Shown: one piece after another, positions 17,065-43,785 of the stretch
Layout of the letters: every line of letters starts with the position of its first letter
Numbering within the stretch: position 1 is the stretch's first letter
Source: a virus
Reading direction: 5' to 3' (one strand)
Virus record (IMG/VR): IMGVR_UViG_3300045988_080644
DNA: 64,000 nt
Position numbers and translations under genes: made by a program
Notes under the pieces: generated by a model
Database searches by the model: none
Told to the model about the DNA's origin: nothing
What the model saw: only the letters and a program-made list of their open reading frames with translations

Positions 17065-18126
17065 TTAATATCCTTTATTATAATTTAAATTTAAATCATA
17101 TTTATTTGCATAATGTTTTCCCTAAACTCTTTGAGGAGCATTTCCATAATGTACTTTTAATGGATGTCCTTCTTCTCCAGATTCATATATATAATTACCC
17201 TATCTAACAGGCAAAGAATATATAGAATCTCCTACTGCGTTATTGTTTATCATATAGTTAAGTGCATCTGTAGGTAAATTAACACAACCATAAGATTTAT
17301 TTCTAATTCCATTTTTAAAATCAGTCTATCTACTCTTAGGCATAATATGAAATAAAACGGAAGTTTTCTACTTAGTGTTTGTATTATCTCTACTTCCCTC
17401 ATTCCATCTAAATGCTGGATGTCCTTCATAACTAGAAGAAGATAAAGTAAAAATACCAGCAGGTGTTACCTAGGCTTGTTTACTTCCATTATAAAAGTTT
17501 TTATCTTTCTAGTATATTGGATCAGTTTTATAATTATTCCAAAAATTATATCCATCCTAGTCATTAGATAAACCTGTCATAACATCAAATTGTGCTAAGG
17601 CTTTGTTTCCTTGCATGTGTTTTAATTGATGATTATTTCTATCTAGTATCCAATAAGGTTCAGTAACACCACTATGTATTTTATGGTCTATAATAGCCTA
17701 TTCATTCTTGTTAGTAGATAATGGATAAGGTTTTGGCTCAAACTTATTAATCCAATTAGTTAAACTAGTAAACATATCGGTATCTTTGTTAGTCTACTAA
17801 TTCTTTTTTAACTAATAATCATGCCATGCCTATTTACTTTTTACACCCCAATCTCCATCTACTGCAATATTATAACCAGCTTTAACTAGTTCCTACTGCT
17901 ATTGACGAACTTTGTTAGGGTCATACATAGCACCATATTTAGCTCTTAATCTAGCATCATAATTATTTTGCTGTTTTCTTCTAGTCTAGAGCTATTTAGA
18001 ACCCTATGTAGCTCTCTGATTCATCTATTTTACCTTTTTTAATCCAGAATTAGTAAAATCCTTCATTTTCTATCTTTGTACTCCAATAATGTTTCCAAGA
18101 TAACTATTTTCAAAATTTCCTGTCAT
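17065..18126 (-). CDS. L,D-transpeptidase (YkuD) domain protein with PG-binding repeat; TAG-recoded
   Basis: Absent from the track. Hand translation gives 353 codons from ATG 18126 to TAA 17065, with 19 in-frame TAG and no TAA or TGA. Reading TAG as Q gives QQELVKAGYNIAVDGDWGVKSKQAWHDYQ (PG_binding_1-like) and FHIMP...NKSYGCVNLP (YkuD His / catalytic Cys motif). Confidence 0.7.
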
Positions 18127-18373: not shown

Positions 18374-18960
18374 CTTACTACACTTGCTTTTATACAAGCT
18401 AACTTAAATAAAGGGATTCGAACCCTTAATCCTCAAGAGATATTTAATGACGACTTTAGAGGAGATTCCGTCAATCTGCTGCCGTATACCAATTCCGCCA
18501 TATTTAAGTTATTGTAGTCTGGACTATTTTATTACCTTATCAATTAACTTCGAAGTAAGGAATTAGGTTTTACCTCTCTCAATGAGCGTCTCCTTTTTTA
18601 CATAATGCATTACTATTATAACCTTATTACTAAGGATGAAGTCTAAACCATTCCTTTTAATTAACTTAGGTATCTCCTCTATAGTCTCTACACATTTATG
18701 CTGTAACACTCCAATTTACATTTAAGATAGATTAGCGTTCTATCACAATTTAGCTCGTCACCACCAAAACCTATGTCACCATAAGTGAGGCTTCTGTCGC
18801 AAGTTAATTAGATTTCTGAATACTGCTTCTATAATCATTACTCTGCTTCTTACACAGATGCTAACCTTTTTACAATTAGTAATTAACTTGTTTAATTAGG
18901 GAGATTCTACTTCTATTATTTCTAATAGAGCACTCAAATTCACCATTACTGGTGTTCCAA
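18374..18960 (-). ncRNA. group I intron in the anticodon loop of tRNA-Leu(TAA)
   Basis: 587 nt inserted between U34 and A35. The 5' exon ends in U and the intron ends in G. Core elements are R-like GTAGAGACTATAG and S-like AAAATAGTCC (P7 GACTA/TAGTC), P3 candidate ATCTCC/GGAGAT directly 3' of P7, and IGS candidate GAGT opposite exon ACTT. There is no ORF inside. Confidence 0.7.
18402..18509 (-). ncRNA. tRNA-like module nested in the 3' part of the intron
   Basis: A 9-bp bracket ACTTAAATA/TATTTAAGT encloses a GG-containing D-loop-like AATTGGTATA and a consensus T arm AAGGG-TTCGAAT-CCCTT. The central arm is non-canonical and contains CTCTAAA (18455-18461). Confidence 0.45.
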
Positions 18961-20394: not shown

Positions 20395-20467
20395 GGTCAC
20401 GCTAGGGATTCGAACCCTGTACTGTAGTCTCACAAACTACCGTGTTACCAGTTACACTAGACGGACC
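20395..20467 (-). tRNA. tRNA-His(GTG)-like, imperfect acceptor stem
   Basis: D arm GTGT-AACTGGTA-ACAC, anticodon arm GTAGT-TTGTGAG-ACTAC, T loop TTCGAAT and an extra 5' G typical of His. By eye, 3 of 7 acceptor pairs are mismatched (GTCCGTC vs GCGTGAC). Confidence 0.5.
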
Positions 20468-20867: not shown

Positions 20868-20938
20868 TGCTCCCTGATAGTACTGACCTGTCTTCCCGAA
20901 ATTAAAAGTTTCGTGCTTCACCTTAAAGCTTAGAGAGC
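20868..20938 (-). tRNA. tRNA-Lys(TTT), atypical T arm
   Basis: Acceptor GCTCTCT/AGGGAGC, D arm GCTT-TAAGGTG-AAGC and anticodon arm CGAAA-CTTTTAA-TTTCG. The T arm GACAG-GTCAGTA-CTATC has one mismatch and a non-consensus loop. Confidence 0.6.
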
Positions 20939-20958: not shown

Positions 20959-21048
20959 CACACGGAGTAGGATTCGAACCCACGCTGTTCAACTTTCATC
21001 TCTATAGGTTTTGGAGACCTACCCTTTCGACCACTCAGGCATCCGTAT
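20959..21048 (-). tRNA. type-II (Ser-shaped) tRNA carrying anticodon CCA
   Basis: 90 nt with acceptor ATACGGA/TCCGTGT and discriminator G. The D arm CCT-GAGTGGTCGAA-AGG is nearly identical in form to the tRNA-Ser(GCT) D arm. Anticodon arm is TAGGT-CTCCAAA-ACCTA, followed by a 21-nt extra region and T arm GTGGG-TTCGAAT-CCTAC. Confidence 0.6.
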
Positions 21049-25641: not shown

Positions 25642-25702
25642 AAATATTATACTTATGTTATTTATTCATAGATAGCTAATAACGTACAACTGTTACTAGC
25701 TA

Positions 25703-25747
25703 TTTCGTCCAGTCTCATCAGTATGAATTTTATAGTCTCCTGGCTGA
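25703..25747 (-). promoter_or_regulatory. conserved ~46-nt upstream element, copy 1
   Basis: TTTCGTCCAGTCTCATCAGTATGAATTTTATAGTCTCCTGGCTGA aligns at roughly three quarters identity with 26700-26746. Both copies sit about 85-90 nt upstream of a start codon, and a non-conserved hairpin lies between element and ATG. Confidence 0.5.
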
Positions 25748-26275
25748 CTTATAAATTACCTGTCTTTCCAGGTTGTCAGTTGTCTCTCCAACAGTCTAAT
25801 ACACAAGACGCGCTGCTTGTGCTCAGCTATGTAAGACGTACCGCTCACACTCGGCTAATTAAACAATTTCTCTTACTCCTTGTTTAAGGGAAGCCTCTCT
25901 TTTAGCACCGAGGTTATCGCTTTAAAAATGTAGAGTCCTTCAACACTTACTATCCCCTCTACTAACTGTCTTTACGCTTTCTTACTTCTAAAGTCTTTTT
26001 AATACTTTAGTTCTACCAGTAATACTTTCAATGTGTTACGACGCGCTAAATACCTCCTGCACAAACCTATAAAGGATAAACACCCGTTCTACTATTTAGC
26101 TATATACTAGGATGATTTTTCAACTTAATTTAAAACATATTAGATAGGAACAGGTTTTACACAATACCCTGTATTACTTTCCGACTGTAGTACGGCAACC
26201 TATAGCTAGATATATCCTAGCCAGATTTTTTAGATTAAACACAGCAGTTTATACACTTACTCAGGTGTTTTTAAT

Positions 26276-26626: not shown

Positions 26627-26699
26627 TTTTTACTTATTTTAGTTCATGGACACAGAGTCATTACTAATACTATCCAGTGATTAATAATTTTCCTCTGTG

Positions 26700-26746
26700 T
26701 TTCGTCTAGGTCTCGTCAACATGAATGTTATACTCTCCCTAGCTGA
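26700..26746 (-). promoter_or_regulatory. conserved ~46-nt upstream element, copy 2
   Basis: TTTCGTCTAGGTCTCGTCAACATGAATGTTATACTCTCCCTAGCTGA, paired with 25703-25747. Confidence 0.5.
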
Positions 26747-26961
26747 GTTTTATTTTTGCATAAGCCATTATTAGTTAACCTATACACTAAAAGGTTTTTA
26801 ATTCTGATTTAATTATGACTATAGTTTATATTTTAGTGAAACATTAAAGTGCGAGTTACTTATGCACCCAATGTTTGAAAATTGACTTGTAATGTGAAAG
26901 TAGTAAAAACCACTCTCCCACAACAGCGCCACCTTGCAGCCGTCTCGATTGTGTTATCCGC

Positions 26962-29213: not shown

Positions 29214-29723
29214 CTACTTCTTAATGATGCCAAGCAGAGACTTTGTGTAAAGTCTTTCCTCGTATTTGCACATATAGTCCAGTTTGGTGAACTTATAGTC
29301 TGCAACATTGTTGAAGTGGTTAGCTACTCCCTCCATCCAGTCTTTCACTGTAGTATCAGCTGAGGCTGTGGAACGTGAGAATGTGTGTAGTTCGTCATTA
29401 GGTGTGACGAACGCAACAAATTCACCCTTCGCATCGAAGGTAGCAATATCATCAGTGAGTAAGTCCCACTGCAACATTGCAAACTCCAAGTGTTCCTTAC
29501 CATTGAAGTAAGGAACGAGACCACAATAGCAGTTTTCAGAGAAAGACTTGTCACGCTTCATATAGCGCAAATCATTATGGAAGACCAATTTGAAGTCATC
29601 AGGCATCTTGTCAGGATAAGCGGTGACAACGTTAGTAATTGCCATCGCATTGCGTAAGCTCATATTGCTTGAACCATTTGCAACCTGAACATTAGAGTCA
29701 TTGTTTACGATTACTGTAGCCAT
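29214..29723 (-). CDS. hypothetical protein (169 aa); ORF closed by TAG
   Basis: Track ORF with stop codon TAG (cta at 29214-29216). It is the first gene of the reverse-strand block next to the divergent control region. Confidence 0.55.
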   Translation of the reverse strand: MATVIVNNDSNVQVANGSSNMSLRNAMAITNVVTAYPDKMPDDFKLVFHNDLRYMKRDKSFSENCYCGLVPYFNGKEHLEFAMLQWDLLTDDIATFDAKGEFVAFVTPNDELHTFSRSTASADTTVKDWMEGVANHFNNVADYKFTKLDYMCKYEERLYTKSLLGIIKK

Positions 29724-30177
29724 ATTAAATCGGAATTAGGCGCAACATTACGCCGACCACTCTTTCGGAGTAGACGAGACTATCTCATTTTCTTGGAAAT
29801 GGGCAAAATCATTCAGTAGTTTAAGGTCAGACTGAATGCGTGACCGACGATGAGGTGCTCGGACAGCTGCCCCAGACGAGCTTGACGTGCTCGGATTCGA
29901 TATAATTATTTATATCTATGTTTTAATAGTTGCTAATAACTGGCTATTTTAATATTTATTTTCCCTACTCGATGCCCAGGGGGGCTAAAACGAGTAGTGA
30001 GCCCATGCTACGATCACTATGTGAATTTTTCATAAGTAATACTTATCCTCATCTTTGCTTTAGTATAAAATACTGATATTATGTTAGAATTAGCATTTTT
30101 GATAATTTTAACTTTGACCCTCCGATATTTTTGAGTATCTATCGTATAGATAAGTGATAACACTAAATTGAACAAAT

Positions 30178-31026
30178 ATGAAAAGAAATTTAAATGTATT
30201 ATTAGCAGTTATAAATGCATACGAAGAAAACGGAGAATTTTCTCATTTTAGTGGGGCAGAATTAAATCATAAATTTGGATTTGCTACTAAAAATATTCCG
30301 CAGATGTTAAAAGATTTAGTAGATCTAAAATATATAGAAAATCACACAATAAATGGATTTTATAATAGATATAAAATATTAAAACATATAGATTGTCCAG
30401 AATTTATATTAGATAATAGACTTTCTAATTCTCAAAAAGACTTCTTATTAAGATGTATAGAACAAAATATAACAGAAGATCTTTCTAAGAAAGAAATGGC
30501 TAGAAGAGTAAATGGAAATGAAAATGGATGGAATTTTTCACGTTCAGTAGATGGAATCCTGGAGATATTAGGAGAAGATAGTTTATTTGATATAATCAGT
30601 GAATTTAATATAGTAAAAGAATTAAAACCAGAAAATGCAATCAAAACAGAATTTGGATATAAAACAAATAAAAATATTAAGAGATTAGACTCTAGTGAAA
30701 AAACTCAAGATAATATAATAGCTCAATTTCTATTAAAGAAATCTTCTCAGTGTAGGAGAAGAAGAAATAAAGTATTGGAGTATAACTTAACATTAGAATA
30801 TATAAAAGAACTTTTGTTAAAACAAGAGTATAAAGACTATTATACTGGGCAAGTGCCAGAAAACTATGAAGACTATTCCATAGATAGAATAGATAGCAAT
30901 TTAGGATATATAGAAGGAAATATTGTAATTACAACTAATAGAGTAAACACTATGAAAAATGATATGTCTACAGAAGAATTTAAAAAACTAATTTCTGACA
31001 TATATAAAAATATTTCTAATTTCTAA
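30178..31026 (+). CDS. HNH-type endonuclease-like protein
   Basis: 282-aa ORF. The C-terminal SIDRIDSNLGYIEGNIVITTNRVNTMKND matches the HNH (D..d...gY...N......N..K) pattern of phage homing-endonuclease-like genes. Confidence 0.5.
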   Translation: MKRNLNVLLAVINAYEENGEFSHFSGAELNHKFGFATKNIPQMLKDLVDLKYIENHTINGFYNRYKILKHIDCPEFILDNRLSNSQKDFLLRCIEQNITEDLSKKEMARRVNGNENGWNFSRSVDGILEILGEDSLFDIISEFNIVKELKPENAIKTEFGYKTNKNIKRLDSSEKTQDNIIAQFLLKKSSQCRRRRNKVLEYNLTLEYIKELLLKQEYKDYYTGQVPENYEDYSIDRIDSNLGYIEGNIVITTNRVNTMKNDMSTEEFKKLISDIYKNISNF

Positions 31027-31273
31027 AGTCAGGATTTATAACAACCCAGGGGCTGTTTATATAAAGTACCCGTACCAGTTTTACTGTCGTTCAAATGCAT
31101 TTATCAATTAGTAATTAAGGGATTAAAACAATGATTTTTGACAATAATTTGGGTATAAAGCTCTTATTGTTACATTTTAAATTATTTTAACTTTTATATT
31201 TTCAACAATTAATCTATTGTAGAATGTGATTAAAAAAGAACTAAATTAAAACAATTTTAAAATATTAATTAAT

Positions 31274-31672
31274 ATGGTTGAAAACTTGTTAGAAGGAATA
31301 ATGACAAATGAAGAATTTCAAGAGCTTATGAAAGCTTCTGAAAATAACAAAGATTATAAATTTAATAAAAATGGTTTAGATATTTCAATGAATAGTTCAG
31401 ATAATGGTTTTGAACTCAGTGTTAAATACACTAATCCAGTACAATCTGAAGTAGAGAAGTTTACAGATTTCTTAAATAGTTTGGATGATGAATTGTTTGT
31501 AGACATTTGTGAACAGATTGGTAATGATGGTTTACAAAAGATTCAGAATTGTTTAGACTCAGAAAATATTGAATCTGTCCGATCTGCAGTTTCTTATTTT
31601 AAAGCACATGCACGAAAATTCATTGCAGATAAAACTAACTATTTGAATGAGCAATTAGTCAAATTTAACTAA
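31274..31672 (+). CDS. hypothetical acidic protein (132 aa)
   Basis: Track ORF, followed by the stem-loop GCTAGTT/AACTAGC (31692-31710). Confidence 0.5.
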   Translation: MVENLLEGIMTNEEFQELMKASENNKDYKFNKNGLDISMNSSDNGFELSVKYTNPVQSEVEKFTDFLNSLDDELFVDICEQIGNDGLQKIQNCLDSENIESVRSAVSYFKAHARKFIADKTNYLNEQLVKFN

Positions 31673-31716
31673 TAACTTAAATACACATTTGGCTAGTTTT
31701 GATAACTAGCTAATAT

Positions 31717-31788
31717 TCTCTTATGGTGTAATGGTCAGCACAGAAGACTCTAAATCTTTTAGTCAGGGTTCGAATCCTTGTGAGAGAA
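31717..31788 (+). tRNA. amber suppressor tRNA, anticodon CTA (reads TAG; probably charged with Gln)
   Basis: 72-nt cloverleaf with acceptor TCTCTTA/TGAGAGA (U1-A72), D region GTGTAATGGTCAGCAC, anticodon arm GAAGA-CTCTAAA-TCTTT (CTA at 31750-31752) and T arm CAGGG-TTCGAAT-CCTTG. Its D region resembles the phage's own tRNA-Gln(TTG). Confidence 0.85.
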
Positions 31789-31878
31789 GAATAGCAATAG
31801 TAGAAACCTCCACGTGGTGCTATTCGGGTAATGCTAATTCTACTTTAAAAAATGATTTAATTATAAAAGATATGTATT

Positions 31879-32190
31879 ATGATTATTGCAATTTATAGAC
31901 TAAATGACAAGCTTTTAAAAACAACTAATTTAGAAAAGAAACTTAAAAAGTTGAAAAAGTCTAAATTAGATAGTAAAATACAAATTCTTTTCCAAGAGGA
32001 TTATGAGGGGGATTTAAAAGAGGCTGAGAATTATTTAGATTACATAATTAAAAAGAACTATGTAATAGATGACAATGTAGATGATACTAGTAATGTGGTT
32101 TTACATCATTATGTCAATAGACAAACTGGTTATACACACACTAGTATATATGATAATGAAATTTTAGAAGGATATGAACAAATCGACTGA
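31879..32190 (+). CDS. hypothetical protein (103 aa)
   Basis: Track ORF, co-directional. Confidence 0.45.
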   Translation: MIIAIYRLNDKLLKTTNLEKKLKKLKKSKLDSKIQILFQEDYEGDLKEAENYLDYIIKKNYVIDDNVDDTSNVVLHHYVNRQTGYTHTSIYDNEILEGYEQID

Positions 32191-32374
32191 TGTTTTTAAC
32201 AGACTAATTAAACCTAAAAATAATATAATGGCTAACTATCTAAGTCGTAAAGCTACAATGTTAGCTGGTAATTGTGCAACTTTAAATCAAAATACTTTAG
32301 TTACACAATTTAAAGATAATCAATGGTACTTAGATTATTTAGATGAATTAAATACATATAGTACTCAGTATTAA
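32174..32374 (+). CDS. hypothetical protein (66 aa)
   Basis: Track ORF overlapping the previous gene by 17 nt. Confidence 0.4.
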   Translation: MNKSTDVFNRLIKPKNNIMANYLSRKATMLAGNCATLNQNTLVTQFKDNQWYLDYLDELNTYSTQY

Positions 32375-32396
32375 ATTGTAACTAATTAAATAATAA

Positions 32397-32708
32397 ATGA
32401 TTGATTATAAAGCAACTATTAAAAATATACACTCAGCATTGTCTGATTTAAATATAGATGAATTATTAATTATACTTGATTGTATTAAAGAGATTCCTAA
32501 TTATAATAACTCAGTACATATTAATAGTGGAGGTTACACATATCCTAGTATGGATAATGTTTTGTTAAATTCAAAATTGAAATCTCCTTCTGTTTCAGAT
32601 ACATTATATTCTCTGCAATTAGATACAGACCATACTACATGTAATTCAGTAAATTGTACTAATGTAGCTAAAAAACGTAAAGACAATGAAACCAATTCTT
32701 CAATTTGA
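32397..32708 (+). CDS. hypothetical protein (103 aa)
   Basis: Track ORF, co-directional. Confidence 0.45.
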   Translation: MIDYKATIKNIHSALSDLNIDELLIILDCIKEIPNYNNSVHINSGGYTYPSMDNVLLNSKLKSPSVSDTLYSLQLDTDHTTCNSVNCTNVAKKRKDNETNSSI

Positions 32709-32782
32709 ATTATAAAATATTTAAGGCGACCTAGCAATTAAGCTAAGCCGCCTTTTATTGTATCTATTAATTACTATAATAG

Positions 32783-32992
32783 TTATTTTCTCCATATACT
32801 AGTTATACTATCTATACCTAGTAATCCCATACAACAATATAAAACTGTATCTATCATATCAGGAGCTTGTTTAGTTACAATACTACAATATATAAGTACT
32901 ATTAAACTAACTACCCATCCTAATATGCCACACACTCTTTTACTACTTATTCCAGTATGTGCTGTTATTAATTTAATTAAAAACTATTTCAT
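32783..32992 (-). CDS. small two-helix membrane protein (holin-like?), TAG-recoded
   Basis: Absent from the track. Hand-verified 69 codons, MK(TAG)FLIKL...ILGWVVSLIVLIYCSIV...VLYCCMGLLGI...WRK, ending in TAA with one in-frame TAG at codon 3. Confidence 0.5.
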
Positions 32993-33113
32993 AATTCTAT
33001 ATTGTCATTTAATTGGGTGCATTTAATTAAATATTTATCCCATAACTATTTATCTCTCTCATTTACAAAATTTAGAAATTCTTGTAATTCATTCAATTGT
33101 ATATTTATATCTC

Positions 33114-33836
33114 TCATACCTAGTTACTATTCTAATTATATATTTGAGCAATTGGATTTAAACCCTATTGCTTATTCCACTAATTAATAATCTATTTATC
33201 CCTATTTCTCCCTCTATTCATTTCTACATTATAGAAGGCTGGTCTTGTATTATAGTTCTTCTATTTTAATCCCTATTTAAACTGTCCAAAGTTCTAAACA
33301 TTCTATAAGTTTTTATATCTACCATTAGTTAGACTATCAGTTACATTTTTAGTCCATCCACCTAAGTTAGATGCCCTTCTTCCAAATGAATAATATTTTC
33401 CAGGTCTGCCATCTTCTATCATAGATAAATGTGAAGTGTCAAAAGCAGCCTACTATGGAATACCCTAATTAACTAAGGAGATATATCTTTGTAATACTTG
33501 AGGCTATGAGTCACTAATCTAAAAAGGTCCGCCCTACTAATAAGTGAGAGGATGATTCTTCTTTAAATCTTTTGTTTTAAACCATCCATTATCTAATATT
33601 GATCTATGACCATTTGGCTTATGTACTTCACCACCATCTTCATGTTTCCATTTCTTTGCATTCTAAGCAAATATGGCTCTTTTTCTAGTTAGAGGATTTT
33701 TACTATGTGTTAATTCTTCAGTAGTTTTACCTGTTCTCTTTTTAGTCTCAGTAAATTTTCCTCTATTTTCTTTTTTAATGTGTATTCCTGAACCTTTAGC
33801 TAGATAAGGGATACCAAATATTTCTAAATCTTCCAT
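33114..33836 (-). CDS. hypothetical 240-aa protein, TAG-recoded
   Basis: Absent from the track. Triplet-by-triplet check gives ATG 33836 to TGA 33114 with 17 in-frame TAG and no TAA or TGA. The product MEDLEIFGIPYLAKGSGIHIKKENRGKF... matches no motif. Confidence 0.6.
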
Positions 33837-33959
33837 TTTAATTAAATTTAATAGTTTATATTACTAATTAATTTGTTATACACCTAATTATATATTATTA
33901 TTGAAAAGTTAAAAATTAGTTTAGATAAATATAAAATAAATGTAAAATGTTAATGTTAT

Positions 33960-34874
33960 ATGGAAAATTTAAGTATTGATAAACAAAACGGAACAGTAGC
34001 CTTTAATGAAGAAGTACATCGTTATTGGGATGTTAATGACCCTTCTATCAAGTTTACTTCTGTAACTACTATGATTGAGCAATTTGGTCAGCCATTTGAT
34101 AAGGAATTTTGGTCAGCATATAAAGCTTTAGAGAAATTATTACCTGCTGATGAATTTAAGATTGAGAAGAAGTCTCTTTTAAATACTAAGAAATTTGATC
34201 CTGTTCTGTTAGAGTTACATAATATTACAGAACTAGATTTTAATAAAGCACAGCAAGAAATATTAGACTCTTGGGATGAGGAGAATAGAAGGTCTTGTGA
34301 AAGAGGTACTAAAATACATGCAGGATTAGAGAATTCCTTTTACACCCAGAAAAAGAATATTACTCTAGATAAATATCAAATAGGAGGTAAATTTGAATGT
34401 CAAAAAGATAGAACTTCTTTAGATTTGGAAAACGCAGTATATCCTGAGTATTTAATTCATTGGGATTCTCCATCTGGTAAATTACATATTGCAGGTCAGA
34501 TTGATTTATTAGTTAAAAAAGGCAATTCCATCGTAATTGGAGACTGGAAAACAAATAAGAAGATTGATACCAAGAGCTATTTTGATTCTAAAGTAAGAAG
34601 TTCTGTTAAGATGAAGTTTCCTCTAAATAATTTAGATGATTGTAATTATTATCATTATTGTCTTCAGCTTAGTACTTATGCTTATATAATTGAATCATAT
34701 AATCCTGATTTTAGTATAGAAGATTTAGTATTAGTACATTTTGATCACAATGACAATATGACTGTTTATCATCTACCTTATCTTAGAAAAGAAGTAGAAC
34801 GTATGTTATCTTATTATGAAAAGGAACATCTTCTACAAGAACGTAGATTAAAGAATAAACGAATTGAATATTAA
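33960..34874 (+). CDS. PD-(D/E)XK (RecB/Cas4-like) exonuclease
   Basis: 304-aa ORF with GTKIHAGLE, the catalytic block GQIDLL...IGDWKT (D...D-x-K) and the distal QLSTYAY (QxxxY) motif. Confidence 0.65.
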   Translation: MENLSIDKQNGTVAFNEEVHRYWDVNDPSIKFTSVTTMIEQFGQPFDKEFWSAYKALEKLLPADEFKIEKKSLLNTKKFDPVLLELHNITELDFNKAQQEILDSWDEENRRSCERGTKIHAGLENSFYTQKKNITLDKYQIGGKFECQKDRTSLDLENAVYPEYLIHWDSPSGKLHIAGQIDLLVKKGNSIVIGDWKTNKKIDTKSYFDSKVRSSVKMKFPLNNLDDCNYYHYCLQLSTYAYIIESYNPDFSIEDLVLVHFDHNDNMTVYHLPYLRKEVERMLSYYEKEHLLQERRLKNKRIEY

Positions 34875-34965
34875 TATGATACTATGTATAGCATTATTAC
34901 TAATAGCTTATTTAATTTATAGCACTATAATGGAATTAACTAAGAATTAATATACAAATTAATAT

Positions 34966-35178
34966 ATGGAAGAATATATAACTAAACGTACTAAAATATG
35001 TAGAGCTTGTCCTATTTGTGACCAAGAAAATGAGATTTGTAATGCACATTTGTATTTAAATCCTGAAAATAATGATGTAAGTACAACACCTAAGAAGGGA
35101 TATTTAAAGGGATGCGGATGTTGGCTGCACGCTAAGATTAAAAACTTAAATAGTAAATGTCCTTGTGGAAAATGGTAA
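34966..35178 (+). CDS. Cys-rich small protein (paralog of 35776..36033)
   Basis: 70 aa with CRACPIC...C...GCGCW...CPCGKW. It shares the C-terminal GKW ending with the paralog. Confidence 0.5.
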   Translation: MEEYITKRTKICRACPICDQENEICNAHLYLNPENNDVSTTPKKGYLKGCGCWLHAKIKNLNSKCPCGKW

Positions 35179-35783
35179 TGTGTAAGGTAGAAGGATGTAT
35201 AAGTAATACAATACGTGCTAATGGATATTGTTCTAGGCATTATTATCAGATAAATAAATATGGTAAAATTTTAGATAGAATTAATCGAGATACTAATGTA
35301 ATCCACATAAAAGATACTTATGCAATAATTGATTTGTACGATAGAATAGGAAATAAGATAGGTGAAACTTTAATAGATTTAGAAGATATACCAAAGGTTA
35401 AGAGTATTGGATGGCATCTAACTCCAAATAAGCGTAATACACGATATTGTATCAGCAATAAGGGAGTATTATTACACCGTTTATTAATGGATGACCCGGA
35501 GGGTATGGTTATAGACCATATTAATCATAATGGACTTGACAATAGGAAATGTAATTTACGTATATGTACTAATCAAGAAAATATTTGTAATTGTGAAATA
35601 CCTAAAAATAACAAATCAGGATGTAAAGGGGTATATTGGGCTAAAGACAAGCAAAAGTGGACTGTACAAGTTACAATAAACAATAAAACTAAATATATAG
35701 GAAGATATGAAAATCTAGAAGATGCTATTAAGGCTCGACAAGAAGCTTCTAAGAAATATTATGGAGACTTTGCTAATGATTAA
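35157..35783 (+). CDS. HNH endonuclease with AP2 DNA-binding domain (homing-endonuclease-like)
   Basis: VIDHINHNGLDNRKCNLRICTNQEN is an HNH_3 motif. CKGVYWAKDKQKWTVQVTINNKTKYIGRYENLEDAIKARQEA is an AP2 domain. The true start may be the ATG at 35178. Confidence 0.7.
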   Translation: MSLWKMVMCKVEGCISNTIRANGYCSRHYYQINKYGKILDRINRDTNVIHIKDTYAIIDLYDRIGNKIGETLIDLEDIPKVKSIGWHLTPNKRNTRYCISNKGVLLHRLLMDDPEGMVIDHINHNGLDNRKCNLRICTNQENICNCEIPKNNKSGCKGVYWAKDKQKWTVQVTINNKTKYIGRYENLEDAIKARQEASKKYYGDFAND

Positions 35784-36033
35784 AGGAATGAAATTAAACA
35801 TATTAATTAAATGGTTACATGGTATTTTAACTAAGCCATTAACTATATTAAAAAGCATATATTATAATATTAAGAATAAACATCAAGATTTAGCTATTAC
35901 AAGATTAGGTATATGTCATAGATGCGACCATAAATTAAATACTAACTTCGGTGATTTATGTGATTTATGTGGATGTGTATTAGATAATAAAACTAGAGTT
36001 AAAGATGAATTTTGTGAACAAGGTAAATGGTAA
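35776..36033 (+). CDS. Cys-rich small protein (paralog of 34966..35178)
   Basis: Track ORF trimmed to the ATG at 35776. It contains CHRC...CDLCGC...CEQGKW. Confidence 0.5.
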   Translation: MIKGMKLNILIKWLHGILTKPLTILKSIYYNIKNKHQDLAITRLGICHRCDHKLNTNFGDLCDLCGCVLDNKTRVKDEFCEQGKW

Positions 36034-36056
36034 TTATTGCCGTAAATTAAATGTAA

Positions 36057-36662
36057 ATGACTATGGATTTTAGAAGTGAATTAAATGGAAAAGAGAAAGT
36101 AGCTCAATCACTTATCGGTATGGAAAGCACAGGAACTCCTATTGTAGTTAATGGACAAAGAGCAGACGTTATTTTAGCTAATGAAAAGAAGTCTAAATTT
36201 AATACTAAAGTAGATGAATATGTAGATAAATTTGAAAAACACAATAAAGCACTTGAGGACTATGCTAAGGAAATCTCAAAGGACATCAATGGTTTAGAGA
36301 TATTACCAATGGGTTCTTATGCATTGATTAAACCTTTTGATGAGAATCCTTTCCAAAAAATAACAGTAGAGAGTGGAATTATTACAGACCTAGGTGGATT
36401 TACTCCTCAATATAAGAGTGAAGAGGATGGTCAAATTCACGAATTGGAACAGTTTATTCGTGTCGGTACTGTAATTGAGACTGGGTTTAAATGTGAGTTC
36501 TTGAAAGAAGGTGATGTAGTATTCTTTACTAAAGCTAGTGAAGCTACTGTTCCATTCTTCAAGCAAGGATTTGTAGTAGTTAATGAATCGCGAATTATGG
36601 CAATAGTTAATGAGAAATTAACAGAAAGAAAGAATCAAATTAAGAATAATGGAAACAAGTAA
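36057..36662 (+). CDS. GroES/Gp31-like co-chaperonin fold with N-terminal extension (tentative)
   Basis: The C-terminal half ALIKP..E....SGII....VGTVIETG....LKEGDVVFF.K....V.F..QGFVVV.ES.IMAIV follows the GroES pattern. This is the last forward-strand ORF without in-frame TAG. Confidence 0.45.
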   Translation: MTMDFRSELNGKEKVAQSLIGMESTGTPIVVNGQRADVILANEKKSKFNTKVDEYVDKFEKHNKALEDYAKEISKDINGLEILPMGSYALIKPFDENPFQKITVESGIITDLGGFTPQYKSEEDGQIHELEQFIRVGTVIETGFKCEFLKEGDVVFFTKASEATVPFFKQGFVVVNESRIMAIVNEKLTERKNQIKNNGNK

Positions 36663-36672
36663 TAAAGTTTAC

Positions 36673-36858
36673 ATGCAGCCGGGAGATGTAGTTTAGTTAC
36701 GTTAGCGTGACAAAATGCATTGTCCGGCTATGCTTGTTATTAGAAAAGAGCAAGCAATATTTAAAGATGAAATGAAAGGATTAAGATGTAGATGGTTTAC
36801 TGATTCAGGTTTAATGTAGGAAGCAGTATTCAACACTAAGGATTTAATACTTGTATAA
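36673..36858 (+). CDS. DUF2158 (YodC)-like small protein, TAG-recoded
   Basis: 61 aa with 3 in-frame TAG. Reading TAG as Q gives MQPGDVVQLRQRDKMHCPAML...CRWF, which matches the GDVVQLKSGGP.M...C.WF signature. This is the first TAG-containing ORF of the late block. Confidence 0.6.
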
Positions 36859-39061: not shown

Positions 39062-41422
39062 ATGCCTAGAAAGAAGAAAGTATTACCTGATGAAATCTAG
39101 TTAATTGTAGATGAAGTAAAAAAGAAATAGTAGGAAGAAGATACTAAAGAGGCTAAGAAATTAGTTGATGAATATAGAATTGAACGTTCTAATGATAAGA
39201 CATATTGGGATATTACTAAGGATATGAAAATAGAATGCTTCGATCCTACTTTATCTTATGAATTAACTGGTTATAGACCCATAGATGAAACTCATGGTTT
39301 AGATTTTGATCCTTCATGGTTTACTGAAGTTAGAGAAACATTTCTAAGAACTGGGAGATATTGTTCTTATTTACCTAGAAGTAAAAGATGGGATGCATTT
39401 TGGAAAGAACAATATACTAGATGTAAATACGGTATGACCTCACATGGATATACTATTACTGGAGATAACTATTTCTTCTTAAATTTTTATTAGTTACCAG
39501 TAGTAGATATGGATAAAGCATCAGGTGAAGGTACTAATGAAAGTTTTCCAGTATTCTTTGCTTCTCAATATATGTTCTTTCATTATTTACAGATGTGTAG
39601 AGTATTACATAAAAATGCTGCCTTAATGAAAGCGCGTTCAATTGGCTTTAGTGAGATAAATGCTTCTCTTGCAGCTAGACTATACACTACTATAAAAAGA
39701 AGTAGAACTATGATTACTTGTTTTAAAGATACTTATTTAAATGGTACCTTTAGTAAGTTAGACCATGCTCTCACATTCATTAATACAAATGCTGATGGAT
39801 TTTTTAAACCTAGATTAACAGATAAAGCCCTAGAAAAGAAATCAGGATATTAGGTTAAAATAGATGGTTAGTTCACAGACTTTGGATGGCGTTCTGTTGT
39901 AATAGGAATTAATGGAAGCAAGCCTTCTAATATTCGTGGTGATCGTGTTGATCTTCTTATTTATGATGAGGCTGGTTCGTGGCCTGATTTAACTACTGCC
40001 GTAGTGCAAGGACAAGAATTATGTGAAGTACAAGGTGTTCCTAGAGGTATTATGTTATTTGGTGGTACTGGAGGTGACTTTGGTCCCCCTCTTGAAGGAT
40101 TAAAAAAGATTTATTATAATCCTAAGGCTTTTAAAATTCTACCATTTAGGCATAAGTGGACACAAGATGGAACCACTATAGAGAGCGGATTCTTTCTTCC
40201 TTATTTTCTGCAGTCTTTGAATCCTGAATATATGGATTCTAGAGGAGTTTGTAATTAGACAGAGTATAAGAAATTATTACAAGAAGAAAGAAATAATCTG
40301 TTAGCTGTTCCTGAAGAGTATCTTAAAAAGTGTGCTGAGCGCTGCTGGAATGCAGAAGAAGCATTTACTCTCGAAGGTTAGAACAAGTTTAATAAAATGA
40401 AGATAGCAGATTAGTTAGCTAAAATACGTCTTCATAAAATTGGACCTAGACCACAAGTAGGAACTATTGATTATACTTATAAATCTAATAAACACTCTTT
40501 AGAAAATATAGATGGATTTAGATGGCTTCTTAATTCTGGTAAAGTTTAGATATTGGAACATCCAGTATGGTCTGATTTATATAAAGAACAGATTGAGAAG
40601 TAGAAGAGAGAAGCTGAGGAATAGGGGATTGATTTTGAAGCTCCTGTATACACAGAAATGAATGATTTATATGTAGCAGGTATTGATGGTATTGATATTG
40701 GTGCTGCTCAAACTTCTAAAGAAACTAGAGACCCTTCTGATTTTTGTATTGTAATTAAACGTAGAGCCTTTGGTCTTAATGAACCCCAATATGTAGCTAT
40801 GTATAAAGACAGACCTCAAAATATTAGAGAAGCTTATAAGATAGCTATGTGTATGTGTAGATATTATAATTGTAGAATTAATATAGAGGCTACCCGTGTA
40901 GGTATGATTACTTGGGCTAGAGAAAATAAATGTCTACAATACTTTATGAAAAGACCTAGAGCCACTTTGACTGATATTAAATATGGTACTACTAAATAGT
41001 ATGGTACTCCTGCAACTAAAACTATTATAGAACAACAAACAGACCTTATAGCTGATTATGTAGAAGACTATGGACATAATATCTGGTTTGAAGATATGCT
41101 AGAATAGTTAAATGGTTATAATGATGAGAATAAAACAAAATTTGATATTATAGCTGCTCTTGGAATGGTTGAACTTGCCGACTAGGAATTATCAGGAAGA
41201 CAACCTACAAAAGTTGACAAAGAAGTTGAAGAATTTTAGGACTACGGATATTATATAAATGACAAAGGTTATAGAGAATTTGGGGTTATTCCAAAGAAAC
41301 AATCAAATCAAATAGTAATTAAATAGGAGGAAAACAATGACCCATACCGAATTGAAACAAGTGATCCTAGATTATATGAGAACACAGTTTTAGATAGATT
41401 TTATAGGAGATATTCGTATTGA
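39062..41422 (+). CDS. terL: terminase large subunit, TAG-recoded
   Basis: Track fragments 39224.., 39509.., 40004.. and 40658.. all lie in one frame, and hand reading joins them into 786 aa. Motifs are Walker B-like RVDLLIYDEAGSW, GDNYFFLNFY(TAG)LP, CWNAEEAFTLEG and the nuclease-domain VAGIDGIDIGAAQ. The 3' end is either TGA 41420 or, if the TAG at about 41325 terminates, 32 codons earlier. Confidence 0.85.
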
Positions 41423-41639
41423 AGATTTGGATCCTATAGGATATAAAGTTTCTCTTAATCTAGACCATTCTGAGAACCCTTTTGTACTAATGGCAGATTT
41501 ACCTGATGCTAAATTTGTAGATTTTATAAAAGAGGAATTAAGAAGAAGTAAATTACATAGAGTAAAGTATTTTAAAGCAATTAAAATACAACCTCCAGAA
41601 TCTAAACTATGTTATGACAGACAAAGAGCTTATAGATAA
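41337..41639 (+). CDS. hypothetical 100-aa protein, one in-frame TAG
   Basis: The ATG is preceded by AGGAGGAAAACA, a rare strong Shine-Dalgarno in this window. It extends track ORF 41427..41639 upstream through one TAG. Confidence 0.5.
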
Positions 41640-43785
41640 GACTAACGAAACCATTTCTGAACTTGTATATGATAAAACTAAGTTATAGAAAGCTTATAAT
41701 TATTATAATGGAAAAAGAGACAAGGAATAGTTTCGTTATCTAGAAGAAAACTTTGGTATAGGAAGTCCTACTTCTGTTGAATTTACGCCTTTACTAAGAA
41801 AACATGTAGATGCTTTAGTTGGTGAATTTCTAGGAACTCCTATATTACCAAAAATATCCTGTAAAGATGCAGGAACTATCAGTAATATGGATAGAGAAAA
41901 ATAGCTATTGATATAGACACAAATAATAGGATTTTTAAAGACGCATTTAAATAATTCCTTACTTAAATTTGCTAATAACTAGGATATTACTGATAAATCT
42001 ATTAAATAGTAGTTAGATAAAATAATTGAAGAGCAAGATTAGCAATTTGTTTCTCAATATGAGATTGCTGCTTAGAATATTCTTCAATACATTATGTAGT
42101 CTGAAGAAATTGATTTTGTAACTAAACTTAGACAATTATTTATAGACTTATTAGTTACAGGTTATTGTTTTTACAGAGTAAAACCATCATTTAGTAAAAC
42201 TAATATTGAAATAGAGGTATTAAATCCTTTAAATACCTTTGTAGACAGAAATCCTGAATCTCCTTATGTTAAGAAATCTTATAGGTCAGTTGTGAGACAA
42301 TGGCTTTCTAAAAGTTAGATATTAGCTAAATATGGAAATGAACTGAGTAAAGAGGACTTACGTAATTTTAAATAGAACTGGACAGATGATGACACAGCTA
42401 GGTACAGAAGAGCCTATGGTCCGGTTGTAGATATAGATGAAGCTAGTGATGATGACGAAGAACAAGATTTACTTCCTGGTTATCCTGAAGATGATTCCCA
42501 TAGATATAATCTGATTCCGGTATATGAAGTAGAATGGATAGAAACTGATGATAAATTTATTATGTAGAGATATAATACAATTAGAATCGGTGATGAATAT
42601 TATATTCTTAGGGGAATTGATAAATAGGTAATTAGAAGTCATGATAATCCTAATTATTGTGGATTGTCGGTAAATGGTGTTTATTTTTTAAATAGAGCTC
42701 GTTAGCCTTATAGTTTAATCTTAAAATGTGCTCATTTGTAGGATCGTTATGATCTTTTACATTACTATAGAGATGCTATTGTAGCAAATAGCGGGGTTAA
42801 AGGTAGTATTATTGACATTTCTATGATTCCTAAAGTGTTAGGACCTGATTTTGGAGCTAGAGTAAAGAAATGGAGAGCTTATAAGAAACAAGGAGAAATG
42901 TTAATTGACTCTTCTCAAGAAGGAAGAATGGAAGATGGATAGGCTCCTTTAAATACTATATTTAATGGCTATGATGAATCTTTACCAGCTTAGGTAATAC
43001 AAGCAATTGATTTAGCTATACAATCTATTGAATCTACTGTGTCTTCTATTACAGGTGTATTTAGAGAAAGACTTAATGGCATTGAATAGAGAGATGCTGT
43101 AACTAATGTTAAATAGGGAGTAACTAATTCTTATACTGTAACTAAACCTATCTATTAGCAAATGGATTTAGTTGTAAGAGAAGTCTTACTTGATAGTCTT
43201 AACTAGGCTAAAATAGTTTATAAGAAAGGACTAACTGGCACTATTACTTTAGGGGATAAATATTAGAAAATATTTACAGCCCTTCCCGAATACTTTACAA
43301 TTACAGACTATGATATACATGTAATATCTAGTACTGAAATTATGTAGGATATGTAGACAATTAAATCTACATTACCTGATTTAATTAAGTCCGGATTAGT
43401 TAGTGCTGATATTATATTTGAAGCTCTTACTGCTAAGAGTTTGACTGAACTTAAATATACTGTTAAGAAAGCCATAGAAAAATAGAAAGCTGAAAATAAT
43501 TAGTTATAGCAACTGTAGTAGAAATTAGAGGAAACTAGTTAGTAGTTACAATAGACATAGCAAGAGTTATAGAAGGCTCAATAGAAAGCAGAATCTCTTA
43601 ATGAACAAAGAATGCAGCTTGATTAGCAGAAGATTCAATTAGAATATCAAGTTAATTGGTATAAAGCTCAAACAGATAGAACTTATAAAGATAGACAATT
43701 AGATATAGAGGATTAGAGAACTAAGGTTGAATTAGCTTAGTTAAATGATGGTAATCCTTATAATGACAAAATTAGACAATCGTAA
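41614..43785 (+). CDS. portal protein, TAG-recoded
   Basis: 723 codons verified line by line, with about 39 in-frame TAG and no TAA or TGA before TAA 43783. It lies next to terL. The N-terminal AYNYYNGKRDKE(TAG)F is recalled from crAss-type portals. The C-terminus becomes a Q-rich coiled coil if TAG is Gln. Confidence 0.7.

Follow-up and report, generated by a model that had tools for sequence, protein, structure and literature searches.

Within the 64,000-nt stretch of viral DNA analysed here (IMG/VR record IMGVR_UViG_3300045988_080644; hereafter the window), a fusion of a suppressor tRNA with a CUA anticodon, tRNA(CUA), to a theta ribozyme lies close to where the rightward arm begins and probably serves to decode UAG as Gln for the late genes of the phage. 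The pathway that we infer, from co-transcription and cleavage through end healing, charging by GlnRS and timing to the defeat of release factor 1 (RF1), would run as follows. tRNA(CUA) would be transcribed together with its flanks, that is, the gene for a 132-aa protein and a hairpin on the upstream side and the ribozyme and gene 31879-32190 on the downstream side. Host RNase P would cleave at U1 (31717), whereas the ribozyme would cleave itself off between 31788 and 31789, exactly after A73, thereby bypassing the 3' trailer nucleases of the host. Enzymes encoded outside the window would remove the 2',3'-cyclic phosphate and add CCA, and host GlnRS would then charge the tRNA with Gln, recognising it by C34, U35, A37 and G10 as well as by the weak first pair U1-A72. 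Once charged, tRNA(CUA) would read UAG as Gln, out-competing RF1, so that the genes for packaging, structural and cell-wall proteins, which use TAG as their majority codon for Gln, could be translated; early genes would avoid TAG or keep it as a true stop.

The tRNA(CUA) gene and its 3' ribozyme

The preliminary description had proposed a 72-nt CUA cloverleaf on the forward strand, to be checked by a tRNA call. ARAGORN indeed makes such a call at 31716-31789 (+), with cta as the anticodon, and the Rfam model RF00005 matches 31717-31788 with 63.3 bits, well above its gathering score of 29 (E=2e-11). The tRNA is 72 nt long and has no encoded CCA; position 1 corresponds to U31717, the anticodon to 31750-31752 and the discriminator base A73 to 31788. 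Its acceptor stem, TCTCTTA/TGAGAGA, opens with a U1-A72 pair, and the D stem GTGT/GCAC encloses a D loop of 8 nt, AATGGTCA, that includes G18G19. The 5-bp anticodon stem (GAAGA/TCTTT) carries a normal 7-nt loop, CTCTAAA at 31748-31754, in which both U33 and a purine at position 37 are present, and is followed by a variable region of 4 nt and the T arm CAGGG-TTCGAAT-CCTTG. Compensatory changes in relatives confirm this cloverleaf as that of a genuine tRNA. Among nine distinct members of the family, 97.9% of the pair cells hold standard pairs and 11 of the 21 pairs show both-sided change, a level of covariation that 0 of 500 shuffles matched, slid controls being 42-56% paired. The loop core CUCUAA is invariant in all nine (one relative, L023, has C at position 38), and the gene recurs in synteny in all relatives of at least 72% TerL identity for which sufficient upstream flank sequence is available. 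The remaining tRNAs of the window, which holds 9-12 in total, were all placed by ARAGORN and Rfam on the - strand at 15.9-21.1 kb, in line with the earlier statement that tRNA(CUA) stands apart from the reverse-strand arrays.

Judged by its architecture, the covariation within its family and its adjacency to the tRNA, a theta ribozyme is fused to the 3' end of tRNA(CUA) (Table 1). Its predicted cleavage site, A31788/G31789, falls directly after the discriminator base, and the ribozyme is presumably active in self-cleavage. The HDV-type models of Rfam score below threshold (CPEB3 with 23.8 bits against 35, HDV-F-prausnitzii with 23.6 bits against 44), and no Rfam match carried a theta-family label; both of these models include a P4 helix, which minimal ribozymes do not have. 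Across 81 unique homologues, P1 is paired to 99.3%, compared with 55.5% in shuffles, and P2 reaches at least 6 bp in 73 of them, compared with about 6 in controls; 54 distinct P2 strands occur. The 3' end of a tRNA lies within 2 nt of the ribozyme in 71 of 117 homologous copies; beside the other tRNAs of the window, no HDV-like element came up in a relaxed Rfam scan, whereas in relatives a theta ribozyme also follows tRNA-Leu(UAA). A loose HDV descriptor of our own was discarded as evidence, as decoys with a mutated catalytic base matched it as often as the active form. The preliminary description did not mention a theta ribozyme at this 3' end.

Within the near-identical clade, the window and 5 of 17 related contigs carry the ribozyme; the other 12 contigs lack it, as do all clades at 72-77%. 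IMG/VR contigs 075331 and 080621 are examples of such natural variants. Since so many relatives do without it, the ribozyme cannot be essential for suppressor function. This polymorphism, with the tRNA otherwise the same, amounts to a natural experiment on whether 3' processing by the ribozyme controls the code switch, and it argues for a dispensable accessory rather than a trigger of the switch.

Table 1. Positions of tRNA(CUA), its ribozyme and related features in the window
Feature	Position	Strand	Details and basis
tRNA(CUA), amber suppressor, most likely Gln-accepting	31717-31788	+	ARAGORN, Rfam, covariation, synteny
Minimal HDV-like 'theta' ribozyme, 56 nt	31789-31844	+	Sub-threshold Rfam, published parse, covariation, tRNA adjacency
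Ribozyme P1	31789-31795/31819-31825	+	7 bp, G1-initiated
Ribozyme J1/2	31796-31798	+	
Ribozyme P2	31799-31805/31838-31844	+	AGTAGAA/TTCTACT
Ribozyme P3, 3 bp	31806-31808/31816-31818	+	
Ribozyme L3, 7 nt	31809-31815	+	UCCACGU
Ribozyme P1.1, 2 bp	C31810, C31811 with G31826, G31827	+	
Ribozyme L4, very short	31828-31833	+	Replaces P4
Ribozyme J4/2	31834-31837	+	CUAA; predicted catalytic C at 31834
Stem-loop in tRNA 5' leader, 7 bp	31692-31710	+	GCTAGTT/AACTAGC; read from sequence, terminator-like
Gene for conserved 132-aa protein, no known family	31274-31672	+	Synteny, homologues, AF2 model
Conserved non-coding block	31040-31270	+	CCCCAGGGGCT-TTTATATAAAGTACC ... TTTTAACTT ... TATTGTAGAATGTGA; alignment, 8 loci, 5 clades
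Strand-switch intergenic region	29724-30177		At cumulative GC-skew minimum
TAG as genuine stop of early gene 29217-29723	29214-29216	-	Orthologue comparison
TAG-recoded late block	36649-64000	+	TerL 39062-41422, portal 41614-43785, tail fibre, others; ORFs, TAG-Gln alignment
Recoded unit between tRNA and late block	32723-33836	-	Conserved in relatives, up to 23 TAGs
Gene with 17 TAGs	33114-33836	-	1.3 kb downstream of tRNA(CUA)
Small hydrophobic protein, 1 TAG	32783-32992	-	
Terminator-like hairpin, 13 bp	32754-32723	-	
Recoded leftward-arm gene, 19 TAGs	17065-18126	-	YkuD L,D-transpeptidase-like cell-wall enzyme domain

Genomic setting and time of expression

Within the rightward arm, tRNA(CUA) stands about 1.5-2 kb from the strand switch. 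The gene immediately upstream of it in every clade that has the tRNA encodes the 132-aa protein (35-43% identity). In recoded relatives that are more distant, the 10-kb flanks contain neither this gene nor tRNA(CUA). The 92 homologues of the protein are all metagenomic and unannotated. The protein belongs to no Pfam or PHROG family, a sequence search of the PDB gave no match below E=0.06, and its AF2 model (pLDDT 84.5) has no PDB fold match in Foldseek at E<=0.001. A two-part code-switch module in which this protein acts as the suppressor's own partner, neutralising RF1 or otherwise raising UAG decoding to ~99% per codon, is highly doubtful; the pairing of gene and tRNA fits plain conserved gene order equally well.

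Between this gene and the tRNA lies the 7-bp stem-loop noted previously, which ends 6 nt before tRNA(CUA), is unique within the window and can be extended to 10 bp (31689-31713). It is kept only in the 97% and 77% clades, by sequence and not by covariation, and is absent from the 72-75% clades. Once RNase P has cut, the stem-loop may shield the 3' end of the upstream mRNA; alternatively, it may be a weak terminator or a signal for processing. Ahead of the 132-aa gene, the conserved non-coding block is a candidate for the promoter, or another regulatory region, of gene and tRNA as a unit. Nowhere else in the window are its motifs seen, and neither they nor the leader hairpin form a recurring class of promoters or terminators there.

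From the placement of tRNA(CUA) in a forward, non-recoded module, early transcription had been suggested before. This argument does not hold, because the expression of a tRNA is independent of how its neighbours are coded; moreover, the placement is not conserved and says nothing on timing, since in the clades at 72-75% TerL identity the gene just upstream of tRNA(CUA) has 1-4 in-frame TAGs. Promoter scans, both of the sigma-70 type and of the Bacteroidota type (TTTG...TAnnTTTG), were not enriched over shuffles and thus give no information on timing. Recoded genes are also found near tRNA(CUA) or to the left of it (33114-33836 and 17065-18126).

It may be, though we incline somewhat against it, that tRNA(CUA) is made late, sharing transcripts with the recoded genes as part of a feed-forward loop, an alternative that concerns timing only. 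The tRNA is co-oriented with the late block and stands at its head, the gene directly upstream in the 72-75% clades itself needs TAG suppression, and a separate promoter was not found, with only those 6 nt between hairpin and tRNA(CUA). However, the surrounding + strand genes (30178-36662) are free of TAG, as expected for translation before the switch, and the conserved block upstream could be an early or middle promoter.

TAG as a glutamine codon and as a stop

When TAG is read as sense, coverage by long ORFs rises from 28% to 67%. The codons of the late block include 244 in-frame TAG, 147 CAA and 28 CAG, the last ORF included; with that ORF left out, the listed late genes have 30.5 TAG per 1000 codons. 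All genes of the block terminate in TAA or TGA. In-frame TAGs number 17 in TerL, 39 in the portal gene and 65 in the gene for a 2124-aa protein, and every relative has TAG in TerL too. The first in-frame TAG of the + strand is located at 36694, as stated in the preliminary description, and is codon 16 of ORF 36649-36858. In alignments with relatives, Gln is enriched 10-fold in the TAG columns of TerL and 7.2-fold over 348 TAG columns of 7 proteins; where the partner residue is invariant, it is Gln in 15 columns and His in none. In other crAss-like phages, TAG as Gln has been shown by metaproteomics (PMC9523058). On this alignment evidence, the late genes of the phage read TAG as Gln, and both the CUA anticodon and the recoded late genes bear out the earlier view of a phage-encoded amber suppressor.

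At the same time, comparison with relatives reveals a dual use of the codon: one early gene at least still has TAG as its true stop, while in the late genes TAG is the majority Gln codon. Exactly where gene 29217-29723 has its TAG stop, its orthologues in two relatives (L015 and L023) carry TAA or TGA; suppression of this stop would add 18 residues, and in five more early genes a lone TAG lies 1-18 codons ahead of the next stop. The base that follows sense TAG shows no difference from that following CAA or CAG (p=0.84), which gives no sign of selection against RF1-favoured contexts. Dual use without such a context bias means that RF1 must be overcome almost completely, and the gene with 65 TAGs requires ~99% read-through per codon. 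It is not obvious that a suppressor tRNA by itself would account for this; among the ~59 proteins of the window, searches with Pfam and PHROGs found no release factor, synthetase (aaRS), CCA-adding or RNA end-healing gene.

As for the amino acid carried, tRNA(CUA) is most likely charged with Gln. The identity set of E. coli GlnRS consists of the weak U1-A72 pair, G2-C71, G3-C70, G10, U35, G36, A37, U38 and G73, and, by established E. coli work, a first pair U1-A72 (or U1-G72) and an anticodon CUA speak for this enzyme. In the tRNA(CUA) family, U1 is invariant, paired as U1-A72 in seven and as U1-G72 in two of the nine sequences, and pairs 2-7 covary. An invariant U1 in an otherwise covarying acceptor stem fits an identity role, which lends weight to the earlier proposal of the first pair as a tRNA-Gln identity feature. 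Of the E. coli set, G10, U35 and A37 are present in tRNA(CUA), while the tRNA of the window departs from it in C2-G71, U3-A70, A38 and A73, although the rules of the true host may differ; G2-C71 and G3-C70 are both found in two relatives (L042 and L051).

A second argument for Gln, the resemblance of the D arm to that of the phage's own tRNA-Gln(UUG), fails: the D-region strings had been quoted correctly, but they are not specific for Gln, the closest tRNA being tRNA-His. tRNA(CUA) is 58% identical to the phage tRNA-Gln(UUG), 68% to a His-like tRNA of the phage and 72% to a Patescibacterial tRNA-His. A scan of 185,579 species genomes for its D-arm/T-arm body gave 21 matches, of which 3 were phage relatives binned into MAGs and the other 18, the only cellular tRNAs, were tRNA-His(GUG) of Patescibacterial and archaeal type. 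Since the scan returned tRNA-His, the D-arm argument was dropped, and descent from tRNA-Gln is not supported, as no cellular tRNA-Gln was among the matches. The Patescibacterial tRNA-His matches carry the G-1/C73 pair typical of tRNA-His, which is absent from the tRNA(CUA) family, where every member has T or C at position -1 and A at 73. A His identity was rejected on account of this missing pair and of the Gln signal in the TAG columns. The suppressor combines a His-type body with a Gln-type acceptor end. In relatives, a second tRNA family toggles among the anticodons CUG, UUG, CUA and UUA; side by side, the His-body suppressor and this toggling family illustrate two evolutionary routes to a suppressor.

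Insertion at TAG of a residue other than Gln, such as His, Trp or Ile, in a rare or unreported code is very unlikely. At columns with at least 75% agreement the partner is Gln in 30 and His in 1, in addition to the invariant columns above; G-1 and C73, which mark tRNA-His, are missing; and the first pair and the anticodon are those that favour GlnRS. What speaks for such a code is that the nearest tRNA bodies are tRNA-His, that the E. coli GlnRS set is only partly present and that, for some phage suppressors, isotype predictions point to Trp (19%), Ile (10%) or Tyr (1%) (Kienbeck et al., PMC10879173).

Charging with Gln being the preferred reading, the purpose of the decoding could still be another one. 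Many Zeta phages have CTA suppressors without recoding (PMC12386605), and for such phages it has been proposed that the suppressor serves to harm or reprogramme the host by read-through of host UAG stops; suppression would also lengthen the TAG-terminated early proteins of the phage itself. That this is the main role here, with phage decoding secondary, is most improbable in view of the 244 TAGs of the late block, which include those of the essential TerL and portal genes, as no such proteins would be made without UAG decoding. The two roles are nevertheless not mutually exclusive. Finally, tRNA-Pyl, a label that ARAGORN prints for any cta anticodon, can be dismissed together with a non-functional tRNA-like relic, given that tRNA-Pyl has a 6-bp anticodon stem, a 3-nt variable loop and a small D loop without G18G19, whereas tRNA(CUA) has the canonical elongator cloverleaf (G18G19, 8-nt D loop, TTCGAAT T loop, 5-bp anticodon stem, 4-nt variable region), that no pyl genes were detected among the window proteins scanned, and that strong covariation and conserved synteny speak against a relic.

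Comparison with known systems

The window appears to be part of a ~185-kb crAss-like phage, putatively of the Zeta type. Related contigs measure 180-190 kb, and TerL is 25-29% identical to that of crAss-like phages and is interrupted in some relatives. The traits compared were those described for the Zeta group (PMC7886860, PMC12386605), namely a genome of 145-192 kb, a crAss-related TerL, many tRNAs, introns or inteins, and code switching. A near-identity search of the 28-40 kb region against GenBank phages gave a single match of 200 bp. With code-15 crAss-like phages, especially Zeta (Yutin 2021, PMC7886860; PMC12386605; Borges, 10.1101/2021.08.26.457843; Peters 2022, PMC9523058), it shares the large low-GC genome of a gut phage with many tRNAs and a CTA suppressor, the use of TAG as Gln mainly in genes of structural, packaging and lysis type while others keep the standard code, and the depletion of TAG and CAG in early genes. 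It differs from them in that the GenBank phage set contains no close relative of it, that its suppressor joins a His-like body to a Gln-like acceptor end, that one early gene at least demonstrably still has TAG as a true stop, and that neither a release factor nor a synthetase gene was seen in the window.

Among ribozyme-linked tRNAs, ~20% are suppressors, 99.7% of these are amber suppressors and 96% of the phages concerned use code 15 (PMC10879173). The ribozyme described here has the architecture of theta ribozymes (Kienbeck et al. 2024, PMC10879173) and follows, segment by segment, the parse of the most frequent published one, no. 1; shared, too, are a G1 that abuts the discriminator base, which puts the predicted cleavage site within the 5 nt of a tRNA 3' end that characterise the family, and an amber suppressor without encoded CCA in a code-15 phage. 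In comparison with no. 1, P2 has changed in a compensatory manner (AGTAGAA/TTCTACT here, ATGAGAA/TTCTCAT there) and J1/2 is 1 nt longer, and the exact ribozyme and tRNA(CUA) sequences did not occur in the searched part of the supplement to PMC10879173.

The classical counterpart is E. coli supE (glnV/glnX, tRNA-Gln CUA), which has in common with tRNA(CUA) a CUA anticodon derived from the Gln box, the weak U1-A72 pair, G10, A37 and a 4-nt variable region, as well as presumed charging by GlnRS and competition with RF1. Suppression by supE is only partial, whereas tRNA(CUA) would have to act at near-complete efficiency. Furthermore, a point mutation in a recognisable tRNA-Gln does not account for tRNA(CUA), whose pairs 2-71 and 3-70, position 38 and discriminator base are unlike the E. 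coli identity set. [quoted passage not shown] The likeness consists in a suppressor amid standard-code genes ahead of recoded late or lysis genes; however, the Jade module serves to read TGA as Trp and not TAG as Gln, and here no synthetase or release factor gene is nearby, the sole constant partner being the 132-aa protein. Both features, the suppressor with its recoded late genes and the ribozyme-tRNA fusion, have already been published from related phages (Yutin 2021; Borges 2021/22; Peters 2022; Kienbeck 2024) and no new principle is involved. The value of the present locus is that of a clean, fully mapped example, in which the ribozyme polymorphism, the dual use of TAG and the origin of the suppressor make open questions testable.

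The suppressor tRNA and its relatives

The tRNA(CUA) placed by the preliminary description at 31717-31788 (+) is called by ARAGORN (31716-31789, +, anticodon cta) and by the Rfam tRNA model, the latter over 31717-31788 (63.3 bits, threshold 29, E=2e-11), and hand reading gives a canonical cloverleaf of 72 nt. The remaining landmarks of that description hold as well: the U1-A72 first pair is seen in the cloverleaf, the 7-bp hairpin at 31692-31710 is present, occurs once in the window and leaves 6 nt before the tRNA, the first in-frame TAG of the + strand is at 36694, and the suppressor stands apart from all other tRNAs, which are confined to 15.9-21.1 kb on the - strand.

Features in the tRNA(CUA) region, the recoded genes and the leftward arm (tRNA(CUA) parts by hand reading, theta ribozyme parts by fold reading)
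Feature	Position	Strand	Details
tRNA(CUA) acceptor		+	TCTCTTA/TGAGAGA, U1-A72
tRNA(CUA) D stem		+	GTGT/GCAC; D loop AATGGTCA
tRNA(CUA) anticodon stem		+	GAAGA/TCTTT; loop CUCUAAA; anticodon 31750-31752
tRNA(CUA) variable region		+	4 nt
tRNA(CUA) T arm		+	CAGGG-TTCGAAT-CCTTG
tRNA(CUA) 3' end		+	Discriminator A73; CCA not encoded
Ribozyme P1		+	GAATAGC/GCTATTC
Ribozyme P2		+	AGTAGAA/TTCTACT
Ribozyme P3		+	ACC/GGT
Ribozyme L3		+	UCCACGU
Ribozyme P1.1		+	CC:GG
Ribozyme L4		+	6 nt
Ribozyme J4/2		+	CUAA; predicted catalytic C at 31834
TerL	within 36649-window end	+	17 TAGs
Portal	within 36649-window end	+	39 TAGs
2124-aa protein	within 36649-window end	+	65 TAGs
Tail-fibre protein	within 36649-window end	+	In TAG-recoded late block
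YkuD L,D-transpeptidase-like cell-wall enzyme	17065-18126	-	19 TAGs
ORF with GNAT domain	7982-8899	-	8 TAGs; may be partly spurious extension
71-aa ORF	14685-14900	-	5 TAGs; may be partly spurious extension
HNH gene 1	30178-31026	+	Homologue only in L055
HNH gene 2	35157-35783		
tRNA-Trp (ARAGORN)	20959-21048	-	90 nt; long variable arm (type II, Leu/Ser/Tyr-like body); loop CUCCAAA; anticodon CCA (Trp)
tRNA, ARAGORN anticodon lacking	16229-16300	-	Otherwise good, 52 bits; anticodon loop only 6 nt (CGUAGA)
Weak tRNA-like match (Rfam only)	20395-20466	-	35.7 bits; GUG (His) anticodon; acceptor stem imperfect
Weak tRNA-like match (Rfam only)	20868-20938	-	34 bits; UUU-like loop; T arm degenerate
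Weak tRNA-like match (Rfam only)	18403-18507	-	33 bits; 105 nt; may carry insertion
RAGATH-1 hammerhead	25666-25750	-	81.3 bits
RAGATH-1 hammerhead	26644-26749	-	69.7 bits
TerD-domain proteins (two neighbours)	57-683; 792-1394	-	Tellurite-resistance/stress family; window's left end

Relatives of the window's TerL were found at 48 loci in IMG/VR, with identities from 98% down to 46% and nearly all on contigs of 110-193 kb. Every relative with at least 72% TerL identity and enough upstream flank carries a + strand tRNA(CUA) 5.4-9.3 kb upstream of TerL. Among the nine distinct sequences of this family, standard pairs make up 97.9% and 11 of 21 pairs are altered on both sides; the pairing was matched by none of 500 shuffles, and slid controls were 42-56% paired. 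U1 and A73 are invariant, the rest of the acceptor stem covarying freely. The fold is under selection; the tRNA is real, it is a suppressor, and the recoding of the phage is genuine.

The window's TerL shares 25-29% identity with crAss-like phages and 42-47% with two unannotated human-gut phage records, and nothing in the GenBank phage set is a near relative. In its size, low GC (31%), abundance of tRNAs and, among some relatives, interrupted TerL, the phage fits the Zeta crAss-like group (PMC7886860, PMC12386605). Stop-filled insertions of 0.3-1.2 kb break TerL in the relatives L042, L055, L058 and L059-L062, which accords with reports of introns or inteins in Zeta crAss-like phages. Three family contigs, L070, L072 and L075 (186 kb, 153 kb and 35 kb), lie within MAGs named Bacteroides sp., Clostridium sp. 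and Acholeplasmataceae; they look like contaminants of the binning, and the MAG names should not be taken for hosts.

A second, unrelated tRNA family (U1-A72/A73) occupies the - strand 2.4-3.4 kb upstream of the + strand tRNA(CUA) in L024-L058, L070, L072 and L075, that is, in the 72-74% TerL clades (L033 and L042 are without it), and is absent from the window's clade. Its anticodon is mostly CTA, with TTA in L025, L053, L070 and L072, CTG in L055, TTG in L075 and a malformed loop in L030, L031 and L045; it is a natural Gln to amber to ochre suppressor series. TerL of the TTA carriers seems uninterrupted (full-length tblastn match). Within the window, the tRNA at 20959-21048 is unusual in joining a Trp anticodon to a type II body.

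TAG recoding and the amino acid inserted

Long-ORF coverage is 28% with TAG as a stop and 67% with TAG as sense. With 244 TAG, 147 CAA and 28 CAG codons, the late block uses TAG for most of its Gln-box codons. In alignments, the residues of relatives that face the TAGs of TerL show a 10-fold enrichment of Gln, and across 348 TAG columns from seven proteins the enrichment is 7.2-fold; the residue opposite TAG is invariably Gln in 15 of these columns and invariably His in 0. This agrees with TAG=Gln as demonstrated by metaproteomics in other crAss-like phages (PMC9523058).

The tRNA body points elsewhere than the preliminary description supposed. The likeness of its D arm to the phage's tRNA-Gln(UUG), advanced in favour of Gln, fails as an argument: the suppressor is 58% identical to that tRNA, versus 68% to the weak His-like tRNA at 20395-20466 and 72% to a Patescibacterial tRNA-His. 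A scan of 185,579 species (one genome each) for tRNAs that share this D-arm and T-arm body, whatever their anticodon, matched 18 genes for tRNA-His(GUG) and no tRNA-Gln; the three other matches were phage relatives that had been binned into MAGs. The matched tRNA-His genes have G-1, G1-C72 and C73, all three lacking in the suppressor family. With the D-arm argument gone, the case for Gln therefore consists of the TAG columns, an unchanging U1 in a weak 1-72 pair, G10, U35 and A37, and the fact, cited by Borges et al. as well, that GlnRS tends to accept a CUA anticodon. The window's copy of the suppressor departs at 2-71, 3-70, 38 and 73 from the E. coli GlnRS identity set, which may not be that of the host. 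Altogether, the suppressor very probably inserts Gln.

A further cta tRNA called by ARAGORN, in a MAG contig labelled only ‘uncultured bacterium’ (L066, 7049-7121, -), lies a few kb from that contig's tRNA-His/Arg/Leu/Val genes in a neighbourhood like that of the Patescibacteria matches; its sequence is unrelated to the phage suppressor.

In-frame TAG is almost absent from the leftward arm (57-29723, -), where six genes have one each, 1-18 codons ahead of the next stop. The TAG of gene 29217-29723 coincides exactly with the TAA or TGA of its orthologues in two relatives; it is a true stop, whose suppression would add 18 residues. Heavy recoding on the - strand is limited to a few genes, among them the YkuD-like enzyme (17065-18126) and a conserved pair at 33836-32783 (-), only 1.3 kb from tRNA(CUA), whose larger gene contains 17 TAGs. 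As for efficiency, 0.99^65 is 52% and 0.9^65 is 0.1%; the 65-TAG gene needs read-through of about 99% per codon and, as TAG context shows no bias relative to CAA/CAG (p=0.84), RF1 must thus be overcome almost completely.

Genomic surroundings of the tRNA

A 132-aa gene (31274-31672, +) lies directly upstream of tRNA(CUA) in all tRNA-bearing clades, with 35-43% identity between clades; its product has 92 homologues, all unannotated and metagenomic, and its confident AF2 model has no fold match in PDB. In the 72-75% clades the counterpart of this gene itself has 1-4 TAGs, so that the ‘non-recoded module’ in which the preliminary description placed the suppressor is not a conserved property; there, a 39-aa ORF, read by eye from the alignment, takes the hairpin's place. 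A non-coding block upstream of the 132-aa gene (31040-31270, +) is strongly conserved across all clades (window, L015, L023, L024, L033, L034, L042, L051), with the motifs CCCCAGGGGGCT-TTTATATAAAGTACC, TTTTTTAACTT and TATTGT-G-ATGT-A and no second occurrence within the window; it may be a promoter, operator or structured leader. No promoter could be assigned around tRNA(CUA). The strand switch and the GC-skew minimum fall at about 30 kb, and both HNH genes are seemingly insertions that most other clades lack.

A theta ribozyme at the tRNA 3' end

A relaxed Rfam scan around the tRNA gave sub-threshold HDV-type matches at 31783/31789-31844 (CPEB3, 23.8 bits; HDV-F-prausnitzii, 23.6 bits). Passed over in the preliminary description, 31789-31844 is predicted to fold as a minimal HDV-like (theta) ribozyme, whose G1 (31789) directly follows the tRNA discriminator. 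Scanning the viral collection for the P3/L3 core yielded 117 copies, 81 of them unique; among the latter, P1 is 99.3% paired (shuffles: 55.5%) and shows 4-5 pair types at each position, and P2 reaches at least 6 bp in 73 versus about 6 in controls. In 71 of the 117 copies a tRNA 3' end is no more than 2 nt from G1, the joined tRNAs being Met-CAT (31), Leu-TAA (15), CTA (7), Ile-TAT (6) and others.

Within the window, the suppressor alone among the tRNAs has such a ribozyme. The stretch is an insertion not found in most close relatives: in the 97-98% clade five other contigs have it and 12 lack it, and the 72-77% clades are without it. A paralogue that shares its P1 (GAATAGC) and has P2 ATGAGAA/TTCTCAT lies 3' of tRNA-Leu(UAA) in L101 (1965), L121 (5274), L151, L158 and L165, two of its contigs (101367, 058566) being close relatives of the window phage, and may be the donor of the suppressor's copy. 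The two RAGATH-1 hammerheads, above the Rfam gathering threshold, sit between small ORFs of the leftward arm; the phage therefore has at least two self-cleaving ribozyme classes.

In the best-supported model, tRNA(CUA) would be excised from a polycistronic transcript, with RNase P cutting its 5' end and the ribozyme its 3' end; end healing and CCA addition would follow, host GlnRS would charge the tRNA, and UAG would finally be decoded as Gln in the late genes. The hairpin, left on the 3' end of the upstream mRNA, could conceivably protect that mRNA. A scan of about 59 window proteins found neither a release factor or synthetase nor an enzyme for CCA addition or end healing.

Suppressor tRNAs and attached ribozymes are both already described for phages of this kind, and the window's pair is modest in significance; worth keeping are the suppressor's His-like body, the proven dual use of TAG as stop and Gln in one genome, and the presence/absence polymorphism of the ribozyme. 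The ribozyme has the theta architecture described by Kienbeck et al. 2024 (PMC10879173): segment by segment, it parses like the ribozyme that they found most often, compensatory P2 changes aside, and the tRNA distribution of the 117 copies matches the published one.
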